Below, piece by piece: positions 3 through 10,870 of a DNA stretch of 64,000 bases (position 1 is its first letter; the number at the start of each line of letters is the position of its first letter). The notes below the pieces were generated by a model, which was not told the DNA's origin, ran no database searches, and worked only from the letters and a program-made list of their open reading frames with translations. This DNA comes from Escherichia phage vB_EcoM_VR26, in sequence record NC_028957.1. One strand, written 5' to 3'. Made by a program: the position numbers and the translations under genes.

Positions 3-191
3 GACCCTGAAAGTTTACAGCCTACAGTTGCATTGTTAGCTCGTTATGCACTGACTGCGAACCCTTATACCGTTGCTAAAGACGATAAAGAAGCTCGCAT
101 TATTGATGGGGCTGATATGGATAAGATGGCTAACCAAAGTCAATTGAGTTCTTATCTTGGTGTTAAACTTCCACCACTGGAAAAAGAATAA
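3..191 (+). CDS. 24: capsid vertex/major capsid family protein (gp24-like), C-terminal fragment; 5' end outside window
   Basis: Open frame from window edge to TAA at 189-191 (…ALLARYALTANPY…); position immediately before rnlB matches T4 gene 24; followed by hairpin terminator. Confidence 0.45.
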   Translation, partial: DPESLQPTVALLARYALTANPYTVAKDDKEARIIDGADMDKMANQSQLSSYLGVKLPPLEKE

Positions 192-211: not shown

Positions 212-1216
212 TTAACTAATTAATGCAATCCAAACATGTCTTAATGTATCTCTTACATTTGCAATGAGTTGCTTTTTAACTTCAACAGGATTTTCTGCAT
301 CGGTTAATTCTAATTCTTCACGGGACGCCTCTTCCAAAATATCTTGGGCTGTTAGTCCCATTACCTTTCCGAAATCCTTAGGCGTTACTTCACCAATCTT
401 ACTGATAACATTGTTAATACGGTTAACAGTCACATAATCAGTGAATTGCCACAGCAGGTCCATGTCATCTTGGGACAACACAACAGCAGCCTTGATAGGC
501 TTATCAGACTTTTTCTTTTCGCTAAATTTAGAGTTCTTACATTTAATCGCTACGCGCTCACCATTAGGTAACCAGGCAGGAGTATCAGGTTTAAGAACAT
601 ACCCTTCTGCAGTGAATACTTTACCTTCAACCTTTGCGTCAAAATCGGTGGTATTCGCGGTAGTCAAACCCGCATTATCTACTGTAAAATTGTAATCAGG
701 AACCACAGAATCCAGGTCGTTAGGGAGCTTAATCAAGTCTTCAAAGCTACCCGTAGCCAGGCGTGGGGCAACCTTAAATTTATGGATAATACAGAAGGCT
801 TCCATCAATGAATCAGTCAAAACAGATTCAGAGCCATCTTCCTTAGTAACGCGGATATCAAATACATAGAAATCTTTGTCACCATAATCCACATTCTTCT
901 GGATACCGGCCCCGGCAAACTCACCATAAATTTGGTATGATTGATAATTAATATCCTGTAAAAGTCTCTGCACAGTTTTAATGGAATCTGCATAGTTCTT
1001 GAGTACAATTTCGTAGCCATAGAAATCTTCTGCAGGTGGGATAGGTCCAGTGCGTTTCGCACATGTCACATTGTCTTGTTCAATGATTAATGAAAAGTTG
1101 GTGCCATGAATCTTTTCACGCGCTACCCATTCACCGCTGGTGAAGCCTTGCAGGCGAATCTTTTCAATGAACTTGTTGTTATAGTGATTTTCAAGGCTGT
1201 TGTATTTCTTAAACAT
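212..1216 (-). CDS. rnlB: RNA ligase 2 (Rnl2)
   Basis: 334 aa; N-terminus [19 protein letters not shown]… and adenylation motif EKIHGTN (KxHG) match T4 Rnl2 as recalled; same length as T4 Rnl2. Confidence 0.9.
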
Positions 1217-1345: not shown

Positions 1346-1609
1346 TCAGAATTTTACATACAGCATTGGTTTGTTATCTTGCCAGTCATAATTCCAGGTA
1401 AATGATGTAAATTTTTCTGCCCGCAGAAAATCAGATATCTTTGTGCGGTTTCCCTCTTCATACTCTTTTTCAGAAACTGCCATATTAACAGCATCTTTGC
1501 CATTCTCAGCAGCGGCAATAGCCACTTTGCGAAATATAACAATAAAGTCATTTGCAACTTTATCTTGTGATTCTTTAGCCATTTGACGTAGTTCTTCTGC
1601 GAATGTCAT
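1346..1609 (-). CDS. hypothetical protein (24.2-like by position)
   Basis: 87-aa ORF, overlaps next gene by 4 nt (translational coupling), position equivalent to T4 24.2. Confidence 0.55.
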   Translation of the reverse strand: MTFAEELRQMAKESQDKVANDFIVIFRKVAIAAAENGKDAVNMAVSEKEYEEGNRTKISDFLRAEKFTSFTWNYDWQDNKPMLYVKF

Positions 1610-1809
1610 TTCTTCACCTTTTTGTTAAACAACCGCTTGCGGTATACGATTTTCTCTCGTGACTTGAACTTTTCTTTAGCTTGTTCAACATCAACCCATG
1701 CCTTTGCCATTTCTTTAGCGGTCCCGCCTAATACCTTGGCGATTTCAATAAATGTCATACCAGTTTCATGCAGGAAATGTACTTTAACCTTATTCATAAC
1801 CATTCTCAT
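1606..1809 (-). CDS. small helix-turn-helix-like protein (24.3-like by position)
   Basis: 67-aa ORF; segment MTFIEIAKVLGGTAKEMAKAW resembles an HTH DNA-binding motif; basic C-terminus. Confidence 0.5.
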   Translation of the reverse strand: MRMVMNKVKVHFLHETGMTFIEIAKVLGGTAKEMAKAWVDVEQAKEKFKSREKIVYRKRLFNKKVKK

Positions 1810-1946
1810 GTTGAGTTAGTGAAGCTATCTTAACATGGAATTTTTAACTTGTAAACAGGAGTTTTATGCCAGATATTCTTGAACGTAAAGATTTACTTTA
1901 CAACCGTCACTACCTTAATAAATATTAAATTAATAACGGAGGATTT

Positions 1947-3473
1947 ATGACACAAACTACAGGTGAAAAAGAAGGCGTATTTTACGGTTATTCTCTTTAT
2001 GATTTGAATAAAGAAAAACTAATAACTTTTGATGAATTACTTACGGGTATTCAAGGAGAGCCCGGAGAAAATGGCGATATTGGACCAAAAGGCCCTATTG
2101 GTTTAACAGGTCCTCAAGGACCGAAAGGTGATATCGGGTCAAAAGGTATTAAAGGTGATACAGGTCCTCAAGGTATTCAAGGGCCCGCTGGCCCACAAGG
2201 TCCTCAGGGAGAAAAGGGAGTCCAAGGTTTAGCTGGAGTCCAAGGCATTCAAGGACCAGTCGGCCACCAAGGAGTGAAAGGTGATACCGGCCCTCAAGGT
2301 ATTCAAGGACCGAAAGGTGATACAGGAGCACAAGGCCCACAAGGTGACAAAGGCGAAATGGGTCCGGTGGGTCCGGCTGGTCTAACATGGAAAGGAACAT
2401 GGGACGCTGATGTAGAGTATTCTATAAATGAGGCTGTCGGATATGGTGGTTCTTTATATTTCGCCAAAACAAAAGTTCCTAATGGCGAAATACCAACACC
2501 GACTTCTAACTATTGGGGTGTTTTGGCTACCGAGGGTCCACAAGGTCCACAAGGTCAACAAGGTCTTAAAGGTGATACCGGTCCTCAAGGTATTCAAGGA
2601 CCTGTAGGGCCTGTAGGGCCGCAGGGTATTCAGGGACCAAGAGGACTTCAAGGGTCAGAAGGTGAAATAGGACCGCGGGGTATTCAAGGGCTAAAAGGCG
2701 AAACTGGGCCCGCTGGTCCACAGGGTATTCAAGGGCTAAAAGGCGAGGTGGGTGCTCAGGGTCCTTCTGGTTCTCCTGGACTTACAGGACCAGAAGGACC
2801 TCGTGGGTTAACAGGCGAAGCTGGAGCTCAAGGACCTCGTGGTGCTATAGGTCCTATCGGTTTAACAGGTCCTATCGGTTTAACGGGTCCTCAAGGTATT
2901 CAAGGTCCGAAAGGTGATACAGGTCCTCAAGGCTTACAAGGTCCTCAAGGCTTACGAGGTATTCAAGGAGCTCCTGGAGTAAAAGGAGAAGCGGGTGCAC
3001 AAGGTCCGAAAGGTGATACAGGAGCACAAGGTCCTATTGGTTTAACTGGACCTAAAGGTGATACAGGCCCGAGCCCTTATACTGTTTATAATTATTCTAA
3101 TGTTGCAACTGGTTATGCTGAAATGGTTATGCCTGGTGTGTCATCAAACACAGTATTTAGACTTCGTTCAGTTGGAACTAATATAGAATATAGTGTTCTA
3201 AGTAAAGGCGGAGCTAATAGATATGTAGATTGGCACTTTTCAATTCCAAGTGTTTCCGGCAATACAGTAAGTACTAATAGCGGAACTAATACATTAACTC
3301 CTACAGGTAATTTTACTATTGTGGCGACCGCTTATAATGGACTAAGGGGATTTACAATAACATTATGCGAGTGGGGTTCAAGAGCTATTGTTGATATCAC
3401 TGTTTATCATCATGGGCGTTCGGGAGACACAACCAAAGCTGTGGCTATTCGTATGACTACTACAAAATACTAA
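1947..3473 (+). CDS. collagen-like triple-helix repeat fibre protein with C-terminal globular domain
   Basis: 508 aa; two long uninterrupted Gly-X-Y runs (~nt 2052-2390 and 2534-3072) separated by a W/Y-rich knot (LTWKGTWDADVEYSINEAVGYGGSLYFAK…NYWGVLATEG); GGAGG Shine-Dalgarno 8 nt upstream; not part of the T4 gene set as recalled. Confidence 0.8.
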   Translation: MTQTTGEKEGVFYGYSLYDLNKEKLITFDELLTGIQGEPGENGDIGPKGPIGLTGPQGPKGDIGSKGIKGDTGPQGIQGPAGPQGPQGEKGVQGLAGVQGIQGPVGHQGVKGDTGPQGIQGPKGDTGAQGPQGDKGEMGPVGPAGLTWKGTWDADVEYSINEAVGYGGSLYFAKTKVPNGEIPTPTSNYWGVLATEGPQGPQGQQGLKGDTGPQGIQGPVGPVGPQGIQGPRGLQGSEGEIGPRGIQGLKGETGPAGPQGIQGLKGEVGAQGPSGSPGLTGPEGPRGLTGEAGAQGPRGAIGPIGLTGPIGLTGPQGIQGPKGDTGPQGLQGPQGLRGIQGAPGVKGEAGAQGPKGDTGAQGPIGLTGPKGDTGPSPYTVYNYSNVATGYAEMVMPGVSSNTVFRLRSVGTNIEYSVLSKGGANRYVDWHFSIPSVSGNTVSTNSGTNTLTPTGNFTIVATAYNGLRGFTITLCEWGSRAIVDITVYHHGRSGDTTKAVAIRMTTTKY

Positions 3474-3482
3474 GGAGCTTTA

Positions 3483-4346
3483 ATGGAACCGGTTAAAGCT
3501 GTGTTAGAGCCTGATGTAATAGATGTGGAATATGGTAATACATACTCGGCTACTGTAACTCTGTCTCCTATAGAAAATATTCCAGATGGTTCCGTGATAA
3601 GATATGATTGGGTTGTTAATAACAAGTTCGTTGGTACGGGTGAAGCTACTCGTACCACCCAACCATCTCAGACCGGAAATTATGTATTATCATGTAGAGT
3701 ATTCATTACTCCGCCTAATGAAAATACTGTAATGGTAACAACTAATAAATCATATGGGTATGTATATAAAAATTCCGATACAAGTCCAGTAGATGCAGAA
3801 ATATTATATGATAACAAGATATACCAAGTAGGAAGCAAAGTTAGATTATTAGCCGTTGCCAATAACCCAGATACCAACTTTGTTAAAGGTATTATATGGA
3901 AGGATGCTGATGGTAAGATAATAGGTATAGGTCGGGAATATATCCATACAATGCAATCAGAGTATGATATAGTTCGAGCTAAAGTTACAATGGATTCGCC
4001 TATAAGAGATGAATTTAGTAAGAACTTTACTATACATTTGTACGCTATAAATGTTCAAGAAGGAACATGTATAAGATATATTCATCCTTTAGACCACAGG
4101 GATGCAGGATTTATCTGGTGTGGTTGGTGGGTTATGGATGAAATCCAACGAGCGATAAAACTTGGGCTGGATTGGAAAAATCCAAAAGAGCTAGATTTAA
4201 ATTACAAGTGTGATTTAGAGACATTAGCGTTATTGCTCAAGACATATCCTGAAGCCGAAGTTCAAGAATCAAGACACGGATATATAATAACCAGACTACA
4301 AATTGAGACTGGCGGAATATATGAAAAACCATATGAAGTAAAATAA
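3483..4346 (+). CDS. Hoc-like capsid decoration protein paralogue (Ig-like domains + Hoc capsid-binding domain)
   Basis: 287 aa; C-terminus YIHPLDHRDAGFIWCGWWVMDEIQ…DW…YPEAEVQESRHGYIITRLQIETGGIY aligns with the C-terminal capsid-binding domain of the canonical Hoc encoded at 4372-5475; AAGGAG SD; start 9 nt after collagen-like stop. Confidence 0.75.
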   Translation: MEPVKAVLEPDVIDVEYGNTYSATVTLSPIENIPDGSVIRYDWVVNNKFVGTGEATRTTQPSQTGNYVLSCRVFITPPNENTVMVTTNKSYGYVYKNSDTSPVDAEILYDNKIYQVGSKVRLLAVANNPDTNFVKGIIWKDADGKIIGIGREYIHTMQSEYDIVRAKVTMDSPIRDEFSKNFTIHLYAINVQEGTCIRYIHPLDHRDAGFIWCGWWVMDEIQRAIKLGLDWKNPKELDLNYKCDLETLALLLKTYPEAEVQESRHGYIITRLQIETGGIYEKPYEVK

Positions 4347-4349
4347 AAA

Positions 4350-4367
4350 GGGCCGCAAGGCCCTTTT
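4350..4367. terminator. bidirectional hairpin terminator (gggcc-gcaa-ggccc + T run) between convergent hoc-like and hoc
   Basis: GC stem-loop flanked by A run (upstream) and T run (downstream), so usable on both strands. Confidence 0.55.
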
Positions 4368-4371
4368 ATCA

Positions 4372-5475
4372 TTAATAGACGTAATCGTATATAATACCAG
4401 CTTCCAATGCCGAACGGTGGACGATACGACCGTTACGAGATTCCTGTACATCAACTTCCGGGTAATCACTAAGCATTTTGGCTAATACCGCCAGATGACA
4501 ATAATATGGTGTATCCTCTTTAGTGGCTTTTTTCCAATCTGTACTTTCAGATGTTAATTTCTGAATAGCGTCCATAACCCACCAACCACACCAAATATAC
4601 GCAGTATTACGGACAGGAAGTGGATGTACATAAATTAAAGGACATTCTTCTGGAACAACAGGCTCTGCTTCTGTCACCGTAACAGACTTATTACCTGATT
4701 TAACTGAATTTGTAAAGCCTGTTTGTGATGCAGTAACTTCACAAGTATATGACTTCAAGCCTTCAGTGGATTCCGTTATTGCTCTTGTTGCTTCTGTTGA
4801 GTTGTCGTCCCATTTATATGCAAGAGTAGCGCCAGGAATAGCAGGGGACACAGAAGCTGTCAAATTGAATGGAACATCAACCGTTGCAGTAGACGGGCCT
4901 GAAATCTCAACAGTGAACTCAGGGAATGTATTGTTTTCGACCGTAACAACTACTGCATCAGGATTAATAACTTGGTTGTCATAATCTGCAGCAGAAATGG
5001 TAATTTGACAAGTTAAAGAAACCGGCCCTGCAACAGTAGCAGTACGAGTAATATCTTTAGTAATTTCACCAGTAGACCACAAATATGCTATTGTAGCTCC
5101 ACCAGGTTCACCTGTTACATTAGCCGAAGCGTTATATTCCTCGCCAACTTTAACGGTTGGAGTGGAAGTTGTTAATGTTGCAGTTGCAGACATAGTCTTG
5201 TTATTAACTGTAATAGTTGTTTGAGCCTCTGCCGTTTCAGGCTCTCCTTCTTCCGGCGTTGTGGTGGCAACAACTTTAATTACTTTTGAACCTGCTGGGC
5301 CAGCTGCAATATAATCCATAGTAGCAATAACAGAAGCTTGTGGAACCTCATCAACGGTCCATACAAAAGATTCGGTACCAGCGACAGCGGCTCCAGCCCC
5401 AGTAGCAGTAAAATTAGTTGTTGCACCTATAACCGCTGTAGGTGTTAAAGGGGCAATTGATACAGTATAAGCCAT
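4372..5475 (-). CDS. hoc: highly immunogenic outer capsid protein Hoc
   Basis: 367 aa; Ig-like repeat architecture and C-terminal YVHPLPVRNTAYIWCGWWVMDAIQK…YPEVDVQESRNGRIVHRSALEAGIIY match T4 Hoc as recalled. Confidence 0.9.
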   Translation of the reverse strand: MAYTVSIAPLTPTAVIGATTNFTATGAGAAVAGTESFVWTVDEVPQASVIATMDYIAAGPAGSKVIKVVATTTPEEGEPETAEAQTTITVNNKTMSATATLTTSTPTVKVGEEYNASANVTGEPGGATIAYLWSTGEITKDITRTATVAGPVSLTCQITISAADYDNQVINPDAVVVTVENNTFPEFTVEISGPSTATVDVPFNLTASVSPAIPGATLAYKWDDNSTEATRAITESTEGLKSYTCEVTASQTGFTNSVKSGNKSVTVTEAEPVVPEECPLIYVHPLPVRNTAYIWCGWWVMDAIQKLTSESTDWKKATKEDTPYYCHLAVLAKMLSDYPEVDVQESRNGRIVHRSALEAGIIYDYVY

Positions 5476-5503
5476 AAAACCTCCAAGGGCCGAAGCCCTT
5501 TTG

Positions 5504-6184
5504 TTAATTTAAACGAATAAAAGATGAGTTACGTGTTTCACGAATAAGAATGGAACCGTCACGATTGATATAGTAAATCAAACTAAACAATGTTTGGTGT
5601 GCGCTTGCATGAGTAAAAGAAGTAGGGCGTTCTTTCCAGTCTGGGGTCTCTTTAATCCACTGGTAAATCCACCAAGGGAGAGTACAATATCCAGGAGCTT
5701 TGCCCAGCATAAGCAGATTGGGGCTAAAATTTTTAGGCAGTGTAAATTTAGGAGTTTCAGCTTCGATGATTTGAGCGACAGCTTCTTCAAAGTCTTCGGA
5801 AACAAACGGCACTTCAATTTCAACGAGTTTAACTTCTGATTCAGGGACAACTTCCTGGGTAACTTCGACTACTTCAACGGGTGCTTCTGGAGCATCAAAC
5901 AAAAGAACAGCTTCAGGTTTAGCTGATTCTTCACCTTCAAACTTACTACCTGATAATTCATCATCGGCATTAATAAGGTCGGTGATGCTTAAGCCTTCGT
6001 TATCGTCCGGCATAGGCATGTCAGCAAATGCTTTAAGTCCTGCTTCCAGGTCAATCAACATATTATCGAAAGTTTTTGTTTTCTTAACATCAACACCAAG
6101 CGATGATGCATATTCAGCTAATTTTTCTTTGGCTTCTTTTTTCTCGAGGATACGAATTTCCTCAATATAGTTCTTGTCAATCAT
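5504..6184 (-). CDS. inh: Inh-like protein (inhibitor of prohead protease), capsid internal protein
   Basis: 226 aa, acidic Glu/Pro/Val-rich middle; position between hoc and uvsW as in T4. Confidence 0.65.
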   Translation of the reverse strand: MIDKNYIEEIRILEKKEAKEKLAEYASSLGVDVKKTKTFDNMLIDLEAGLKAFADMPMPDDNEGLSITDLINADDELSGSKFEGEESAKPEAVLLFDAPEAPVEVVEVTQEVVPESEVKLVEIEVPFVSEDFEEAVAQIIEAETPKFTLPKNFSPNLLMLGKAPGYCTLPWWIYQWIKETPDWKERPTSFTHASAHQTLFSLIYYINRDGSILIRETRNSSFIRLN

Positions 6185-6202: not shown

Positions 6203-6210
6203 TATAAATA
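6203..6210 (+). promoter_or_regulatory. late promoter motif TATAAATA upstream of uvsW
   Basis: Exact TATAAATA 29 nt upstream of uvsW ATG. Confidence 0.5.
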
Positions 6211-6238
6211 TAGATATATTTATTACCTTGGAATCATC

Positions 6239-7738
6239 ATGGATATCAAAATCAACTTTTTAAATTTTAGTCATGTACATGTTGAATGTGAAGATAGTAT
6301 CTTCTATGAACTCCGTGACTATTTCAGTTTTGAAGCCGAAAACTATCGGTTTAACCCTAAATTCAAAGCGGGAGTTTGGGACGGACGTATCCGTCTCCTG
6401 GATTATAACCGTAAATTACCGTACGGCTTAGTTAACCAGATTAAAAAATTCGCTGACCAGTTTGGTTATTCATTTTGGATTGACCCTCAAATCACCGAGA
6501 AAGAGGAAATCTCCCGTGTGGATTTCGATAAATGGGTCGAGTCAAAAGAAATCTATTCAGGCCATACCAAGATTACTCCCCATTGGTACCAAACAGACGC
6601 CGTATACGATGGTCTGGTCAACAGAAGAAAGATATTGAACTTACCTACGTCTGCAGGTAAAAGCCTCATCCAGGCGCTTCTGGCGCGATATTATCTCGAG
6701 AACTATGAAGGCAAGGTTCTTATCCTTGTACCTACAACTGCGCTCGTTGACCAGATGATTAATGACTTTGTTGATTATAGATTGTTCCCTCGAGAAGCTT
6801 GTCTCGGTATCCGTTCCGGAACTAAACGTGATTCGGATGCAATGATTTATGTGTCTACTTATCAGACGGCAGTAAAACAACCTAAAGAATGGTTTTCACA
6901 GTTCGGTCAGTTTATGAATGATGAATGCCATATGGCTACTGGTAAATCTATTTCGACTGTTATCGAAGGCCTGACTAATTGTATGTTTAAATTTGGTCTC
7001 TCTGGTTCTCTCCGTGACGGCAAAGCAAACCTTATGCAATATATGGGTCTGTTTGGTGATATCTTTAAACCAGTATCCACATCCCAATTAATGGATGAAG
7101 GACAAGTTACTGACCTTAAGATAAATAGTATTTTCCTTCGATATCCTGATGAATTCACCGTTAAAATGAAAGGCAAATCTTATCAAGATGAAATCAAGGT
7201 AATTACAAAAGCTACGCGTAGAAATAAATGGGTAACAAACCTTGCACTCAAGCTTGCTAAAAAAGATGAAAACGTCTTTTTGATGTTTAAGAATATCGAG
7301 CACGGTAAATCGATGTTTGAAATGCTTAAGGAAGCTGGTCATGAGAATGTGTATTATGTTTCCGGGGAAGTTGATACAGAAACACGTAACGCATTAAAGG
7401 TCATGGCAGAAAATGGAAAGGGAATTATCGTTGTAGCTTCATACGGTGTATTCTCGACGGGGATTTCCGTTAAAAACCTCCATCATATTATTTTCGCTCA
7501 TCCGGTCAAGTCAAAGGTAATTGTACTCCAGACAATTGGTCGTGTACTTCGAAAACATGAATCCAAATCGACCGCAAACGTGTGGGACATCGTGGACGAC
7601 ATGGGGGTTAAACCCAAATCAGCAAACGCTAAAAAGAAATATGTTCACTTGAACTTTGCACTGAAACATGCATTAGAGCGTATTCAGCGGTATGCAGACG
7701 AAAAATTCAATTATATCATTAAACAGGTGGAAATATAA
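6239..7738 (+). CDS. uvsW: UvsW DNA/RNA helicase (SF2)
   Basis: 499 aa; MDIKINFLNFSHVHVECEDS…; Walker A LPTSAGKS, DECH box (MNDECHMA); near-colinear with T4 UvsW as recalled. Confidence 0.92.
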   Translation: MDIKINFLNFSHVHVECEDSIFYELRDYFSFEAENYRFNPKFKAGVWDGRIRLLDYNRKLPYGLVNQIKKFADQFGYSFWIDPQITEKEEISRVDFDKWVESKEIYSGHTKITPHWYQTDAVYDGLVNRRKILNLPTSAGKSLIQALLARYYLENYEGKVLILVPTTALVDQMINDFVDYRLFPREACLGIRSGTKRDSDAMIYVSTYQTAVKQPKEWFSQFGQFMNDECHMATGKSISTVIEGLTNCMFKFGLSGSLRDGKANLMQYMGLFGDIFKPVSTSQLMDEGQVTDLKINSIFLRYPDEFTVKMKGKSYQDEIKVITKATRRNKWVTNLALKLAKKDENVFLMFKNIEHGKSMFEMLKEAGHENVYYVSGEVDTETRNALKVMAENGKGIIVVASYGVFSTGISVKNLHHIIFAHPVKSKVIVLQTIGRVLRKHESKSTANVWDIVDDMGVKPKSANAKKKYVHLNFALKHALERIQRYADEKFNYIIKQVEI

Positions 7739-7965
7739 TGAAGTCATTTGAAGAAATTATGTATGAAGCGGCAATTGAAAGCTTCATGTCTAAGATAGGT
7801 TCTTGTCAGACCATGGACGGTCTGAAGGAGCTGGAAGGTTATTATAAAAAGCGCAGTAAAGAAGCTGAATTGAAAGATTCCGATGATATCAGTGTTCGCG
7901 ATGCTCTAGCAGGTAAACGTGCCGAGCTTGAAGATATGGACGACGAAGAAGACGAAGATTTCTAA
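7738..7965 (+). CDS. UvsW.1-like small acidic protein
   Basis: 75 aa, ATG overlaps uvsW stop (ATAATG); acidic C-terminus DMDDEEDEDF. Confidence 0.6.
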   Translation: MKSFEEIMYEAAIESFMSKIGSCQTMDGLKELEGYYKKRSKEAELKDSDDISVRDALAGKRAELEDMDDEEDEDF

Positions 7966-8022
7966 ATAAAAAGGCCCCAACCAAAAAGGAAGGGGCAAAA
8001 CCAAAATGGTTAACAACACTAG

Positions 8023-8190
8023 CTAAATTAAAAGTTGGGTCTCGTTCAGTTGCTCTTGAGTATTTTCCGTAACTGGCAAACTCTGAACATAATTATAACA
8101 GGCGCCCGGATGCACCGGACCTTGGTCTGTATCCACAACCAATGCAGAATCGATTGGAGTTTTACAGACAACACAAATCTTATCTGACAT
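8023..8190 (-). CDS. small Cys-containing protein (55 aa), possible zinc ribbon
   Basis: Manually translated minus-strand ORF MSDKICVVCKTPIDSALVVDTDQGPVHPGACYNY…; below the 60-aa cutoff of the ORF track; CxxC…C pattern. Confidence 0.35.
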   Translation of the reverse strand: MSDKICVVCKTPIDSALVVDTDQGPVHPGACYNYVQSLPVTENTQEQLNETQLLI

Positions 8191-8329
8191 GATTGTCTCC
8201 TCAGTTAAACTTACATATCTATTTAGTGCTCTTCATTGCTGTGGCTTTTGCTTTCAATTCATTAACAATTTTGGTTATTCGGTTTGCAGAGATAACCATC
8301 TCGTCAAGAATCTTACTAATATTTTTCAT

Positions 8330-8563
8330 TTAACTTTCCTTAAAGTATCTCATACCAGTATCTATCCCCATATTGTGAGAATAGAATGCATCATCGATGT
8401 ATCCCGCAAATTTACCTTTAACATAGATAACATCTTCACCACAAGGGTGGTCAGCGCAGATACGAATATCTGCACGATTCAATTTCCATTCCTTCATCAT
8501 ATACTTAATTTCTTCTTCGAACTCTTCGTCTTGGTTAAACGCATCGTCGATAGAATATCGCAT
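8330..8563 (-). CDS. hypothetical protein (uvsY.-1/-2-like by position)
   Basis: 77-aa ORF immediately downstream of uvsY with ATG overlapping uvsY stop. Confidence 0.55.
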   Translation of the reverse strand: MRYSIDDAFNQDEEFEEEIKYMMKEWKLNRADIRICADHPCGEDVIYVKGKFAGYIDDAFYSHNMGIDTGMRYFKES

Positions 8564-8997
8564 TACTTGCCTGCCTCGAATTGTCTTATTTCTAACATAT
8601 GTTTAAGCGCGAAACTTCTCGACTTAACACCATCTAATGCAGCGCTACAGAAGTCCTGGAGCAGTGCCCAATATTGAATTGAAGTATCAATCTTAAGCAC
8701 GCTTGAATCTGCGGCCATAACTGTTTTCAATTCTGACTTCTCGTACACATCCATGCATACTTCTTCCCCTGGGTCACCCCTTCCCGTATAATGGTCTAGT
8801 CGTTTTTTCAGTGCAGTTTTCTTCTGAATCTCAAGACGCATTATTTCTTTCTTGCAGTTGGTATACAATCTCAACCATTTGCTATGCAACAAAACGTTGT
8901 TTTGTGTTTCATATTGAATTTGTGTACCATCAATTTTTAAATCTGCATCCAACTCATCCTGAAATACTTCCAACTTATATTCAATCTCTGTTTTCAT
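8563..8997 (-). CDS. uvsY: UvsY recombination mediator protein
   Basis: Matches T4 UvsY as recalled (…LHSKWL…KKEIMRLEIQKK…RGDPGEE…LKHMLEIRQFEAGK). Start set at internal ATG (MKTEIEY…) because the upstream ATG at 9025-9027 lies inside the -10 element of the promoter. Confidence 0.8.
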   Translation of the reverse strand: MKTEIEYKLEVFQDELDADLKIDGTQIQYETQNNVLLHSKWLRLYTNCKKEIMRLEIQKKTALKKRLDHYTGRGDPGEEVCMDVYEKSELKTVMAADSSVLKIDTSIQYWALLQDFCSAALDGVKSRSFALKHMLEIRQFEAGK

Positions 8998-9025
8998 AAT
9001 GTATCCAATGTAAGGGTCTAGAACC

Positions 9026-9050
9026 ATTATACAGCCATAAAATTAAAGCA
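9026..9050 (-). promoter_or_regulatory. MotA-dependent middle-promoter-like element (MotA box TGCTTTA + 12 nt + TATAAT) upstream of uvsY
   Basis: Minus strand reads ttaaTGCTTTAattttatggctgTATAATgg; matches T4 middle promoter consensus (MotA box at about -30, -10 TATAAT). Confidence 0.45.
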
Positions 9051-9440
9051 TTAACCGTTTTGACTTAACTGAATCCTGATTTGTTCGAGGGTGTCAGGGT
9101 CATCAACAATGCTGAACTGAACCGTTACGATGATGGAGTTATCATCATACATAGGGACAACCGCAACCTGCAGATTGCTTATCCTTGGTTCAAAGTTCCG
9201 CACAGCGGAGACGATGTTGCGTTTAATGGTATCTGTGATTAATGGTGTGATATTCTCAAAAAGCTGATTACTTATATCACATCCAAATTCAGGCATAAAA
9301 GGCCTTGACCCTTTTCTTGTGGTGATTATTCCCAGAAGACTGTTCTTAACAGACCTTGCACCAGTTACTTTAGCAACGTCTTTATCCCAACTTGTAGATA
9401 AGTCGGGAGACACATCGCTATACATTTTGTTTATATTCAT
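9051..9440 (-). CDS. 25: baseplate wedge protein gp25 (gpW/lysozyme-like fold)
   Basis: 129 aa; MNINKMYSDVSPD…SLLGIITTRKGSRPFMPEFGCD… matches T4 gp25 as recalled. Confidence 0.9.
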   Translation of the reverse strand: MNINKMYSDVSPDLSTSWDKDVAKVTGARSVKNSLLGIITTRKGSRPFMPEFGCDISNQLFENITPLITDTIKRNIVSAVRNFEPRISNLQVAVVPMYDDNSIIVTVQFSIVDDPDTLEQIRIQLSQNG

Positions 9441-10064
9441 TTACATAAACTTAAAGAATTCTTTAAGCCCCTTAATTACATGGACAGAATGCGCTCCACA
9501 CTCACAAGAGATAGGAATAGCCATTTGGACCTGTGGCTTGAGAAGTTCTTCCGTTAGTGCATTGATATCATCGAGGGTAATTGCATTGTACAGGTCCTCG
9601 ATTTCGGCCTCATTTAAGTCATCAACAACGATGCGCTCGCCGCCTTCCGTGATAATATATTCAATGCAACAAGCAATCATTTTTCCTTTATCACCGTCTT
9701 CAAACAGTCCAGGATAACGGAATTTAATTTTAAACGACCCGAAATCACGAATAACTTCAGACTCGTCCACGATGCTCGCGCGGCTTATTGTCACAGGAAT
9801 GTCTTGTTCCTTTCCGCACTCACATACCCATGTATGCTCGACGTTAACAGCTCCGAGACTATTTGCCCAGAGATTAATAAGAAGCAACTCGGCTTCCTGT
9901 TTGTTTAACCCTTTAGCATCAGTGCATTTATTAAGCAGTTCAATTATTGCAGGTTCCATACGCTTTTCTAATTTTGCCTGAAGCAAATCTTTATATTCGC
10001 GCAAGGTAAAAGCCCTACAATTTATAGTTTTATTTTTAATTTGGACAATAAATTCATAAGTCAT
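9441..10064 (-). CDS. 26: baseplate hub subunit gp26
   Basis: Start chosen at ATG preceded by AAGGAG SD (MTYEFIV…); 207 aa, close to the T4 gp26 length recalled (~208 aa); synteny 25-26-51. Confidence 0.8.
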   Translation of the reverse strand: MTYEFIVQIKNKTINCRAFTLREYKDLLQAKLEKRMEPAIIELLNKCTDAKGLNKQEAELLLINLWANSLGAVNVEHTWVCECGKEQDIPVTISRASIVDESEVIRDFGSFKIKFRYPGLFEDGDKGKMIACCIEYIITEGGERIVVDDLNEAEIEDLYNAITLDDINALTEELLKPQVQMAIPISCECGAHSVHVIKGLKEFFKFM

Positions 10065-10081
10065 AATTTGCTCCTTTACTG

Positions 10082-10093
10082 TATTTATAAATA
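10082..10093. promoter_or_regulatory. divergent late promoters (TATAAATA readable on both strands) between gene 26 and gene 51
   Basis: Sequence tatttataaata contains TATAAATA on + (10086-10093) and on - (10082-10089). Confidence 0.55.
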
Positions 10094-10117
10094 TCAATAA
10101 AGATAAAAGGGGATTCT

Positions 10118-10870
10118 ATGGCCAATATCGTAAGATGTGAAATGCCAGACGGAGTTCATCGTTTCAAACCGTTTACAGTCGCTGATTACCGTGATTTACT
10201 GCTTGTGCGAAACGACATGAACAACAAACCCGTCGAAGAACAAAAACAATTATTAGACGAACTGTTGGAAGATTATTTTGGAGAATATCCGAAAGCATGG
10301 AGACCTTACATATTCCTGAAGGTATTCACTTCCTCTATCGGTAAGACAAAAGTCCCGGTAGCGTTCGAATGTCAAAAATGTAAAAAGACAAAGCAGACTT
10401 TGTTTAACATGAGTCAAGGCCCATTGATAAATCCAACGATGGAAACTGCCGGGATAAAAATACAATTTAAGTTCCCTGAAGTGGAATATAAAGATAAGTC
10501 GGAGCTTGTTCTAAACACCATCCAGACTGTCGAAGACTCGGAACAAAAGTACAATTGGGAAGACCTCCCTGAAGAAACGAAGATGCAAGTTATCGATGCA
10601 ATTGATATAGAAAGTCTCGAAGAGCTCCTTAAGAAAATGCACTCGATTTATCTTCCATTTACATATGGTTGCTGCGAAAAACACAAAACCGAATATACAG
10701 ACTTGATTGATGTCTTTAAGCTTATCCTTAACCCGGATGAAGTCTTTGTATTTTATCAAATTAACCACTTGCTGGTAAAGAACCAATATACGCTGGATAG
10801 CATCATGCACATGATTCCTATTGAACGAGGTATTGCTTTATCACTAGTTGAGAAGGACTTGAAAAAATGA
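10118..10870 (+). CDS. 51: baseplate hub assembly protein gp51
   Basis: 250 aa, position and size match T4 gp51 (~249 aa as recalled); ATG overlaps next gene (ATGA). Confidence 0.8.

Follow-up and report, generated by a model that had tools for sequence, protein, structure and literature searches.

We analyzed a 64,000-nt window of the genome of Escherichia phage vB_EcoM_VR26 (NC_028957.1; all coordinates refer to this window unless stated otherwise), in which two genes of the Hoc head-decoration family lie convergently next to a gene for a collagen-like protein. Canonical hoc (4372-5475, minus strand; 367 amino acids (aa)) is situated downstream of inh (5504-6184, minus strand; prohead protease inhibitor; PHROG 1051, E = 1e-88), the first gene of the inh-hoc unit. 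The second Hoc gene, here called Hoc2 (3483-4346, plus strand; 287 aa), converges on canonical hoc with the two stop codons 25 nt apart, and its ATG at 3483 lies 9 nt past the stop codon of the collagen-like open reading frame (ORF) (1947-3473, plus strand; 508 aa). The two convergent Hoc-family ORFs of 287 and 367 aa had been described in an earlier note made from the letters of the window; both are present just as it described and the presence of a second Hoc is confirmed, and the interpretation that it placed on the locus is, taken as a whole, partly supported. The closest public genome is that of Escherichia phage vB_EcoM_VR25 (genus Gaprivervirus), with 97.3% nucleotide identity over the first 8 kb.

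Several comparisons place both proteins in the Hoc family. With BLASTP, the last ~105 residues of Hoc2 and canonical Hoc alone could be aligned (44% identity, E = 4e-28), and no significant similarity was found between their N-terminal parts. What they have in common is a C-terminal capsid-binding domain (C-domain) of ~90 aa, and the signature HPL..R..IWCGWWVMD.IQ..DW..YPE..VQESR.G.I..G.IY occurs in both ORFs. The earlier note had remarked on this signature and on the differing immunoglobulin (Ig)-like N-terminal regions, and had named a pairwise alignment of the C-domains as a check; both observations hold, and the alignment is significant. PHROG 1149 ("Hoc-like head decoration") was matched by Hoc2 (E = 1e-57) and by canonical Hoc (E = 3e-115), with Hoc2 also matching PHROG 21694. 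When Hoc2 was compared by phmmer with the chains of T4 Hoc in the PDB (5vf3_Z, 8t1x, and others; E = 3e-26), its residues 30-283 aligned with T4 Hoc residues 121-376, which comprise T4 domains 2, 3, and 4, and its C-domain is homologous to T4 domain 4. Neither Hoc protein has a match in Pfam, so the family assignment rests on PHROGs, the PDB, and pairwise searches. The C-domain is rare: an exhaustive HMMER search with the 94-aa C-domain as query found it in just 139 clusters among 1.84 billion representative proteins, and its occurrence in both ORFs is thus far beyond chance. Canonical Hoc has a C-domain homologous to those of the family (4375-4650, minus strand), three Ig-like domains (4651-5475, minus strand), and the position downstream of inh that hoc occupies in T4; it is 54.8% identical to the Hoc of phage VR20. 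Both Hocs of the window are acidic (isoelectric points of 5.2 and 4.4), in line with reports on the family.

Hoc2 is predicted to consist of two tandem Ig-like domains (aa 1-97 and 98-193; 3483-4061, plus strand) and the C-domain (aa 194-287, plus the stop codon; 4062-4346, plus strand), the latter assigned by homology to other Hoc C-domains. The AlphaFold2 (AF2) model of Hoc2, computed from a 14-sequence alignment with a mean predicted local distance difference test score (pLDDT) of 86, contains two β-sandwich domains spanning about residues 1-97 and 98-190, followed by a short linker of low confidence and a C-domain of strand/helix type. The top matches to this model among PDB structures searched by Foldseek were two-domain Ig-type receptors, and by predicted structure Hoc2 has the N-terminal Ig-like string of a Hoc protein.

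The residues of T4 Hoc that contact gp23* or hold the central loop have been identified as Y293, H295, H299, R300, Y304, W306, W309, W310, D313, Q354, E355-S356-R357-N358-G359, and Y360 (Fokine et al. 2023, PMC10385173, section 3.4). Hoc2 retains Y293, H295, H299, R300, W306, W309, W310, D313, Q354, E355, S356, R357, G359, and Y360, its sole changes being Y304F and N358H; the sole changes in canonical Hoc are H299V and Y360R. Within the core contact set (Y293, H295, R300, W309, W310, D313, and the loop E355-G359), Hoc2 carries the single change N358H, and Y304F falls outside it. On the capsid side, VR25 and Kosakonia phage 305 differ from T4 in the gp23 docking segment (T4 326-344, which includes D336 and R344) by one change, S to A. 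From these comparisons, Hoc2 is predicted most likely to bind as a monomer at the centre of expanded gp23* hexamers.

The ratio of nonsynonymous to synonymous substitution rates (dN/dS) between Hoc2 and its counterpart in phage KIT01 (dS 0.47) was 0.076 overall, 0.075 for the Ig part, and 0.067 for the C-domain. Since the ratio is equally low in both parts, the gene is under selection, which is strong and purifying, and is not a decaying copy; on the same low ratios we rejected the possibility that Hoc2 is a pseudogene. The Ig part is 32-41% identical among relatives. Between Hoc2 and its VR25 counterpart (3512-4375 there) there are four nonsynonymous and zero synonymous changes, counts too small to interpret.

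The relationships of the C-domains were analyzed in a neighbour-joining tree of 149 C-domains over 90 alignment columns, computed without support values from the sequences of the exhaustive HMMER search; the word-indexed protein search, which was sparse (13 matches for Hoc2; 1 and 4 for the C-terminal domain of the collagen-like protein), was not used for this purpose. Canonical Hoc of the window groups with T4 Hoc. Hoc2 falls in another clade together with its counterparts in VR25, KIT01, VR7, VR5, Kosakonia phage 305, and one metagenome phage, and with the Hocs of the Serratia phages 92A1 and X20. On a 92A1-type Serratia contig the Hoc gene stands in the ordinary position directly after inh and is thus the resident Hoc. 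The second Hoc of phage JS10 lies in a third clade, and two Hocs of 314 and 1174 aa, the lengths reported for Serratia phage Muldoon, cluster together. The identities agree with the tree, Hoc2 being 53-64% identical to Hocs of Serratia and Kosakonia phages vs 44% to the C-domain of canonical Hoc. Separate C-domain clades mean that the pair in the window is no recent local duplication, and the tree and the identities together led us to reject that origin. The earlier note had called Hoc2 a paralogue of canonical Hoc; the term suggests a local duplicate and is better taken to mean a second lineage, as the C-domains belong to different clades and the stretch that carries Hoc2 is absent from VR20, a phage of the same genus. 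Judged by its sequence relationships, Hoc2 belongs to a different Hoc lineage and would have been brought in by a cassette that also carries the collagen-like gene.

This cassette of ~2.5 kb (1873-4346, plus strand) comprises a promoter-like motif, the collagen-like gene, and Hoc2, and it is inserted between 24.3 and the hoc terminator. The genes around it are the end of gene 24 (33-191, plus strand), rnlB (212-1216, minus strand), 24.2 (1346-1609, minus strand), and 24.3 (1606-1809, minus strand) on the left, and inh and uvsW (6239-7738, plus strand) beyond hoc on the right. T4 has the order 24, rnlB, 24.2, 24.3, hoc, inh, (segE), uvsW on the same strands as in the window, with no gene between 24.3 and hoc, and thus shows the cassette-free arrangement. 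The empty site is also present in VR20, in which 24.3 is followed by 116 nt and then by hoc; the left flank of VR20 matches the window to ~1872, and a hairpin lies just downstream of hoc in both genomes. The collagen-Hoc2 pair occupies the same site in VR25, VR7, VR5, ESCO10, KIT01, Kosakonia phage 305, and a 173-kb metagenome contig, and a variant form of it is found in JS10 and probably in Esco_phi_B-01. As a whole, second Hocs are infrequent: matches to Hoc2 in the phage database fall in 1199 places over 1160 records, so extra Hoc copies are uncommon, at most in a few percent of records. The metagenome contig (5001-9462) has three Hoc C-domain genes, encoding proteins of 282 aa (plus strand, after the collagen gene), 960 aa (minus strand), and 185 aa (minus strand). 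The vertex gene 24 is present in two tandem copies in VR25 (2529-5093 of its locus), VR7, VR5, JS10, and Kosakonia phage 305, and the start of the window falls at the end of the second copy.

In Kosakonia phage 305 the Hoc2-type gene is the sole intact Hoc, with no canonical hoc in the interval between it and inh (6260-6621), and this type can therefore serve as the only Hoc of a phage. Just past the terminator, on the minus strand, an 11-codon relic of the 3' end of canonical hoc (LEAGTIYSYVY-stop) is found at 6290-6322, a sign that the resident hoc was lost by deletion.

Comparison with VR7 reveals how the cassette is put together. The window and VR7 are homologous at 1-2092, through the N-terminus of the collagen-like protein, and again from 4069 on, and are divergent between these points; the renewed homology adjoins the start of the Hoc2 C-domain at 4062. 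The exchanged block thus consists of the collagen shaft, the collagen distal domain, and the Hoc2 Ig domains, and both presumed anchoring ends, namely the collagen N-terminus and the Hoc2 C-domain, stay with the backbone. This pattern fits outward-facing variable parts mounted on conserved anchors.

The collagen-like protein (Pfam Collagen, E = 2e-47) has the long uninterrupted GXY runs of bacterial and phage collagen-like proteins, with 38 triplets in aa 34-147 and 60 in aa 197-376. The remaining parts are an N-terminal motif (aa 1-33), a small globular insert (aa 148-196), and a C-terminal β domain (aa 377-508). At a rise of ~0.86 nm per triplet, the 98 triplets correspond to a shaft about 85 nm long. 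The protein is 508 aa here vs 526 aa in VR25 (1922-3502 there) with identical ends, a difference of 18 aa that looks like variation in the number of repeats of the GXY shaft. Its N-terminal motif (first ~33 residues, GVFYGYSLYDL...) is conserved in Kosakonia phage 305 and occurs in Vequintavirinae phages such as A5-4, CR3, CR8, and PBES02, and the first 44 aa are 100% identical in the window and VR7. VR7, VR5, and KIT01 have unrelated domains in place of the C-terminal domain, which is 51-57% identical to those of collagen proteins from JS10, Vequintavirinae, and the siphovirus AugustePiccard (Bas01; Drexlerviridae) and its relatives. The AF2 model of this distal domain is all-β (pLDDT 69) and has no clear solved homologue.

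In each of the three phage families the collagen-like gene is found in a head- or neck-gene setting and not in a tail-fibre cluster. The gene of the window lies between 24.3 and hoc in a head-gene neighbourhood, its PHROG label of tail fibre notwithstanding; that of Bas01 has a GDSL-esterase "head decoration" gene on one side and the major capsid gene on the other; and that of A5-4 lies between the major capsid gene and neck genes. None of these three genes is thus located in a tail or baseplate module. No protein of the window is related to those encoded beside the collagen gene in Bas01 or A5-4, and no shared partner protein was found. The esterase gene of Bas01 (2603-3892) is annotated as "putative head outer capsid protein" and encodes a GDSL-family enzyme (Pfam Lipase_GDSL_2; PHROG 9703, "head decoration"), which recalls the GDSL-bearing Hoc-like protein of Enterobacter phage PG7 and the esterase decoration of phi24B. 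In A5-4, the gene at 7003-10794, which immediately follows the major capsid gene, encodes a 1263-aa protein with both collagen repeats and a fibritin C-terminal (foldon-type) region; the collagen gene with the N-motif of the window comes two genes further downstream.

Signals for transcription and translation were read from the sequence. The motif AATAAATA at 1917-1924 (plus strand) starts 30 nt and ends 22 nt before the collagen-like ATG; it differs by one mismatch from TATAAATA, the T4 late promoter. Over both strands of the 64-kb window there are four copies of AATAAATA, one of them upstream of the collagen gene and one upstream of inh-hoc (6217-6224, minus strand), and 6 of 8 relatives keep the form xATAAATA ahead of the collagen gene. 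The copy for inh-hoc stands back to back with a TATAAATA motif at 6203 (plus strand) for uvsW in the 54-nt inh/uvsW intergenic region. Hoc2 has its own Shine-Dalgarno sequence, AAGGAG, at 3472-3477 (plus strand), which overlaps the collagen stop codon, and in the window neither a late-promoter motif nor a hairpin lies between the collagen gene and Hoc2, which makes late co-transcription of the two genes likely. The gap is 9-11 nt in 6 of the 8 phages compared. In Kosakonia phage 305 it is 29 nt and holds a hairpin, and the 127 nt of VR7 are an artefact of a frameshift in the collagen gene: the "intergenic" stretch (3497-3623 of the VR7 locus) still encodes the VR5 C-terminus (...GATVTIEKLYN-stop), so that the frameshift relative to VR5 is either a sequencing error or a true truncation of the distal domain.

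Between the stop codons of Hoc2 and hoc lies a G+C-rich hairpin, AAAAGGGCC-GCAA-GGCCCTTTT, flanked by an A-run and a T-run (4346-4367). It is retained in 8 phages with compensatory changes in the stem and is probably a shared bidirectional terminator of the two convergent genes. A second hairpin (5485-5500), of the GGGCC-GAAG-CCC type, lies between inh and hoc; on the minus strand, GGAGG and then the hoc ATG come after it. A T-run follows it on the plus strand, antisense to hoc, and this hairpin may block read-through in the antisense direction or make the inh-hoc RNA more stable.

Taken together, these results are best explained by a mobile two-gene late cassette that supplies a functional second Hoc from another lineage beside the ordinary inh-hoc unit, a reading to which we assign a probability of roughly 0.65. 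The host of the cassette is a T4-like coliphage close to VR25, and the cassette, horizontally mobile and on the opposite strand to inh-hoc, would encode a long, collagen-like, trimeric fibre and, 9 nt on, a complete second Hoc with two Ig-like domains and a capsid-binding domain. The C-domain of Hoc2 would dock where that of Hoc does, at the centre of expanded gp23* hexamers, so that virions may bear a mixture of three-Ig and two-Ig Hoc fibres in a ratio set by expression and affinity. The collagen-like protein would form a separate surface fibre with its conserved N-terminus presumably the end anchored in the virion, and the collagen shaft, the collagen distal domain, and the Hoc2 Ig domains would be the parts traded between phages. 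Two proposals of the earlier note fit within this account. It had suggested that the collagen gene and Hoc2 form a co-transcribed pair, and the 9-nt gap, the separate Shine-Dalgarno sequence, the lack of an intervening promoter motif or hairpin, and the similar spacing in most relatives do describe a tightly spaced unit; it had also suggested that two decoration proteins would compete for the same capsid sites, and competition for the hexamer centre is a well-supported inference from the retained contact residues, the conserved gp23 segment, and the sole intact Hoc of Kosakonia phage 305. A third, a capsid surface that possibly displays the collagen-like fibre, is, when read as display by Hoc2, not supported and somewhat disfavoured by the sequence comparisons given below.

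Several observations weigh against this explanation. The tree from which the lineages were read is a neighbour-joining tree of 90 columns that carries no support values. The promoter motif has one mismatch to TATAAATA, and in KIT01 and JS10 it is absent from the 60 nt that precede the collagen gene. N358, which in T4 Hoc hydrogen-bonds gp23 R344, is a histidine in Hoc2 of the window, and the last C-terminal segment is missing from the Hoc2 proteins of VR7 and VR5.

The alternative that survives best, and which we nevertheless consider doubtful, is that the two genes of the cassette are unrelated neighbours, with Hoc2 decorating the capsid, the collagen-like protein forming a tail, neck, or whisker fibre or having no place in the virion, and their pairing reflecting joint transfer of the cassette. 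The PHROG families matched by the collagen-like protein are labelled tail fibre. Lateral tail fibres often have collagen shafts (e.g., gp61 of phi24B), the fibritin C-terminal region of the 1263-aa collagen protein near the Vequintavirinae gene is typical of neck whiskers, and a distal domain common to three phage families resembles a receptor-binding module. Against these points, the PHROG labels stem from the GXY repeats, the gene lies in or beside head genes in all three families and not in a baseplate or tail-fibre cluster, and a collagen-like trimer able to bind capsid hexamers is described for SPP1 gp12 in PMC7602432.

An extension in the opposite direction is more tentative still, namely that the collagen gene and Hoc2 constitute a mobile "capsid surface cassette", in which a head or head-proximal fibre of ~85 nm with an exchangeable distal binding domain, shared with the unrelated Drexlerviridae and Vequintavirinae, whose collagen genes also stand among head genes, is delivered with its own Hoc-type protein. 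If this were true, T4-like heads would gain a second adhesion system independent of the tail.

It is improbable, in our estimate, that Hoc2 acts as an adaptor, its C-domain binding the hexamer and its Ig domains holding the collagen N-terminus in a two-part head-fibre system. Such a model would account for the retention of the pair and its tight spacing across three T4-like genera at just 31-42% identity, for the fact that JS10 differs in both the collagen N-terminus and the type of Hoc2, and for the presence of collagen genes with the same C-terminal domain or N-motif in head modules of Drexlerviridae (beside head-decoration and major capsid genes) and Vequintavirinae (in the interval from the major capsid gene to the neck genes). 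However, the 44-aa collagen N-terminus of VR7 is 100% identical to that of the window though the Hoc2 Ig regions are 32% identical, which argues against a specific lock between the two. The same N-motif occurs in Vequintavirinae, with no Hoc-like gene in the examined head-module stretch of A5-4; Hoc is a monomer at a 6-fold site and collagen a trimer (PMC10385173; PMC7602432); and in Kosakonia phage 305 there is a hairpin between the collagen gene and Hoc2.

Less probable again is a partition of sites, in which canonical Hoc and Hoc2 favour different classes of hexamer (e.g., vertex-proximal vs mid-section) and produce a patterned surface. T4 Hoc does have orientation preferences on vertex-proximal hexamers (PMC10385173), and the contact changes are at different positions in the two proteins (H299V and Y360R vs Y304F and N358H), but the two share the central loop ESR.G and the Trp pair, and the gp23 docking segment is a single sequence. 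We give almost no weight to a recent inverted duplication of hoc within the genome followed by divergence and loss of one Ig domain, since the adjacency and convergence of the two genes, and the precedent of the clustering short (314 aa) and long (1174 aa) Muldoon-like C-domains, which is consistent with local duplication (PMC10385173), are set against C-domains that are just 44% identical and lie in separate clades, the 53-64% identity of Hoc2 to Serratia and Kosakonia phage Hocs, Ig parts with no detectable similarity, and a presence/absence pattern that follows the whole cassette.

Hoc is the main platform for display on the T4 capsid, and adherence to mucus and surfaces is attributed to it. 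A natural phage that co-expresses two Hoc types for one site would offer a ready system for dual-antigen display and for work on mixed decoration and on competitive occupancy. Interest attaches as well to the conserved association of Hoc2 with a very long collagen-like fibre, whose distal domain is traded among three families and whose gene stands among head genes in each; head-borne fibres may thus be commoner than the annotation "tail fiber protein" implies. The two-Hoc arrangement itself is already known from the annotation of near-identical genomes. In the GenBank annotation of VR7, which dates from 2010, ORF196w is a collagen triple helix repeat domain protein and ORF197w is "similar to T4 Hoc", and both VR25 Hoc genes are named "Hoc-like head decoration" in RefSeq; in the literature on VR7, JS10, or Gaprivervirus with Hoc or collagen we found no paper that discusses the locus or the collagen-Hoc linkage. 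New here are the separate lineage of Hoc2, the purifying selection on it, the retention of contact residues, the two-Ig prediction, the travelling cassette, and the sole-Hoc case of Kosakonia phage 305. With the two-Hoc fact already public, the value lies in the experiments to which the locus points and not in the observation itself, and the parts most worth such experiments are the conserved, mobile cassette of collagen-like gene and Hoc2 and the occurrence of related collagen genes in the head modules of other families.

Among known systems, VR7 (ORF196w/ORF197w), VR25, VR5, and KIT01 carry the same cassette at the same site as the window. Hoc2 of VR25 is 98.6% identical to that of the window (4 aa differ), with collagen repeats that differ by 18 aa, and VR7 and VR5 have another collagen distal domain and Hoc2 Ig domains 32% identical to those of the window. 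In comparison with T4 Hoc (PDB 5vf3, 8t1x), to whose gene the minus-strand hoc of the window is syntenic, Hoc2 has two Ig-like domains instead of three, falls in another C-domain clade, and differs by Y304F and N358H; its gene is on the opposite strand, in a cassette with a collagen-like gene. Two Hoc-like proteins per phage have been reported for Serratia phage Muldoon and Enterobacter phage PG7, and the C-domain has been proposed as a means to functionalise the capsid surface (Fokine et al. 2023, PMC10385173). These phages resemble the window in having two proteins with the Hoc capsid-binding domain encoded by one genome; unlike the window pair, with its different clades, the Muldoon-length pair has closely related C-domains, the second Hoc-like protein of PG7 carries a GDSL esterase (PMC10385173), and no collagen-like partner gene is reported for either phage. 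The Hoc of PhiPNJ-9 (PMC11853027), which is functional and mucus-binding, has two Ig-like domains and a C-domain as Hoc2 does. It is, unlike Hoc2, the only Hoc of its phage and is encoded in the canonical position. The collagen-like protein of the window, with its 98 triplets and globular domains, can be set beside SPP1 gp12, which is very short. As cited in PMC7602432, SPP1 gp12 is a collagen-like trimer located at the centres of capsid hexamers (Zairi et al. 2014); by that description it is a precedent for a collagen-type head fibre, to which the protein of the window, with its putative capsid location, may be likened.

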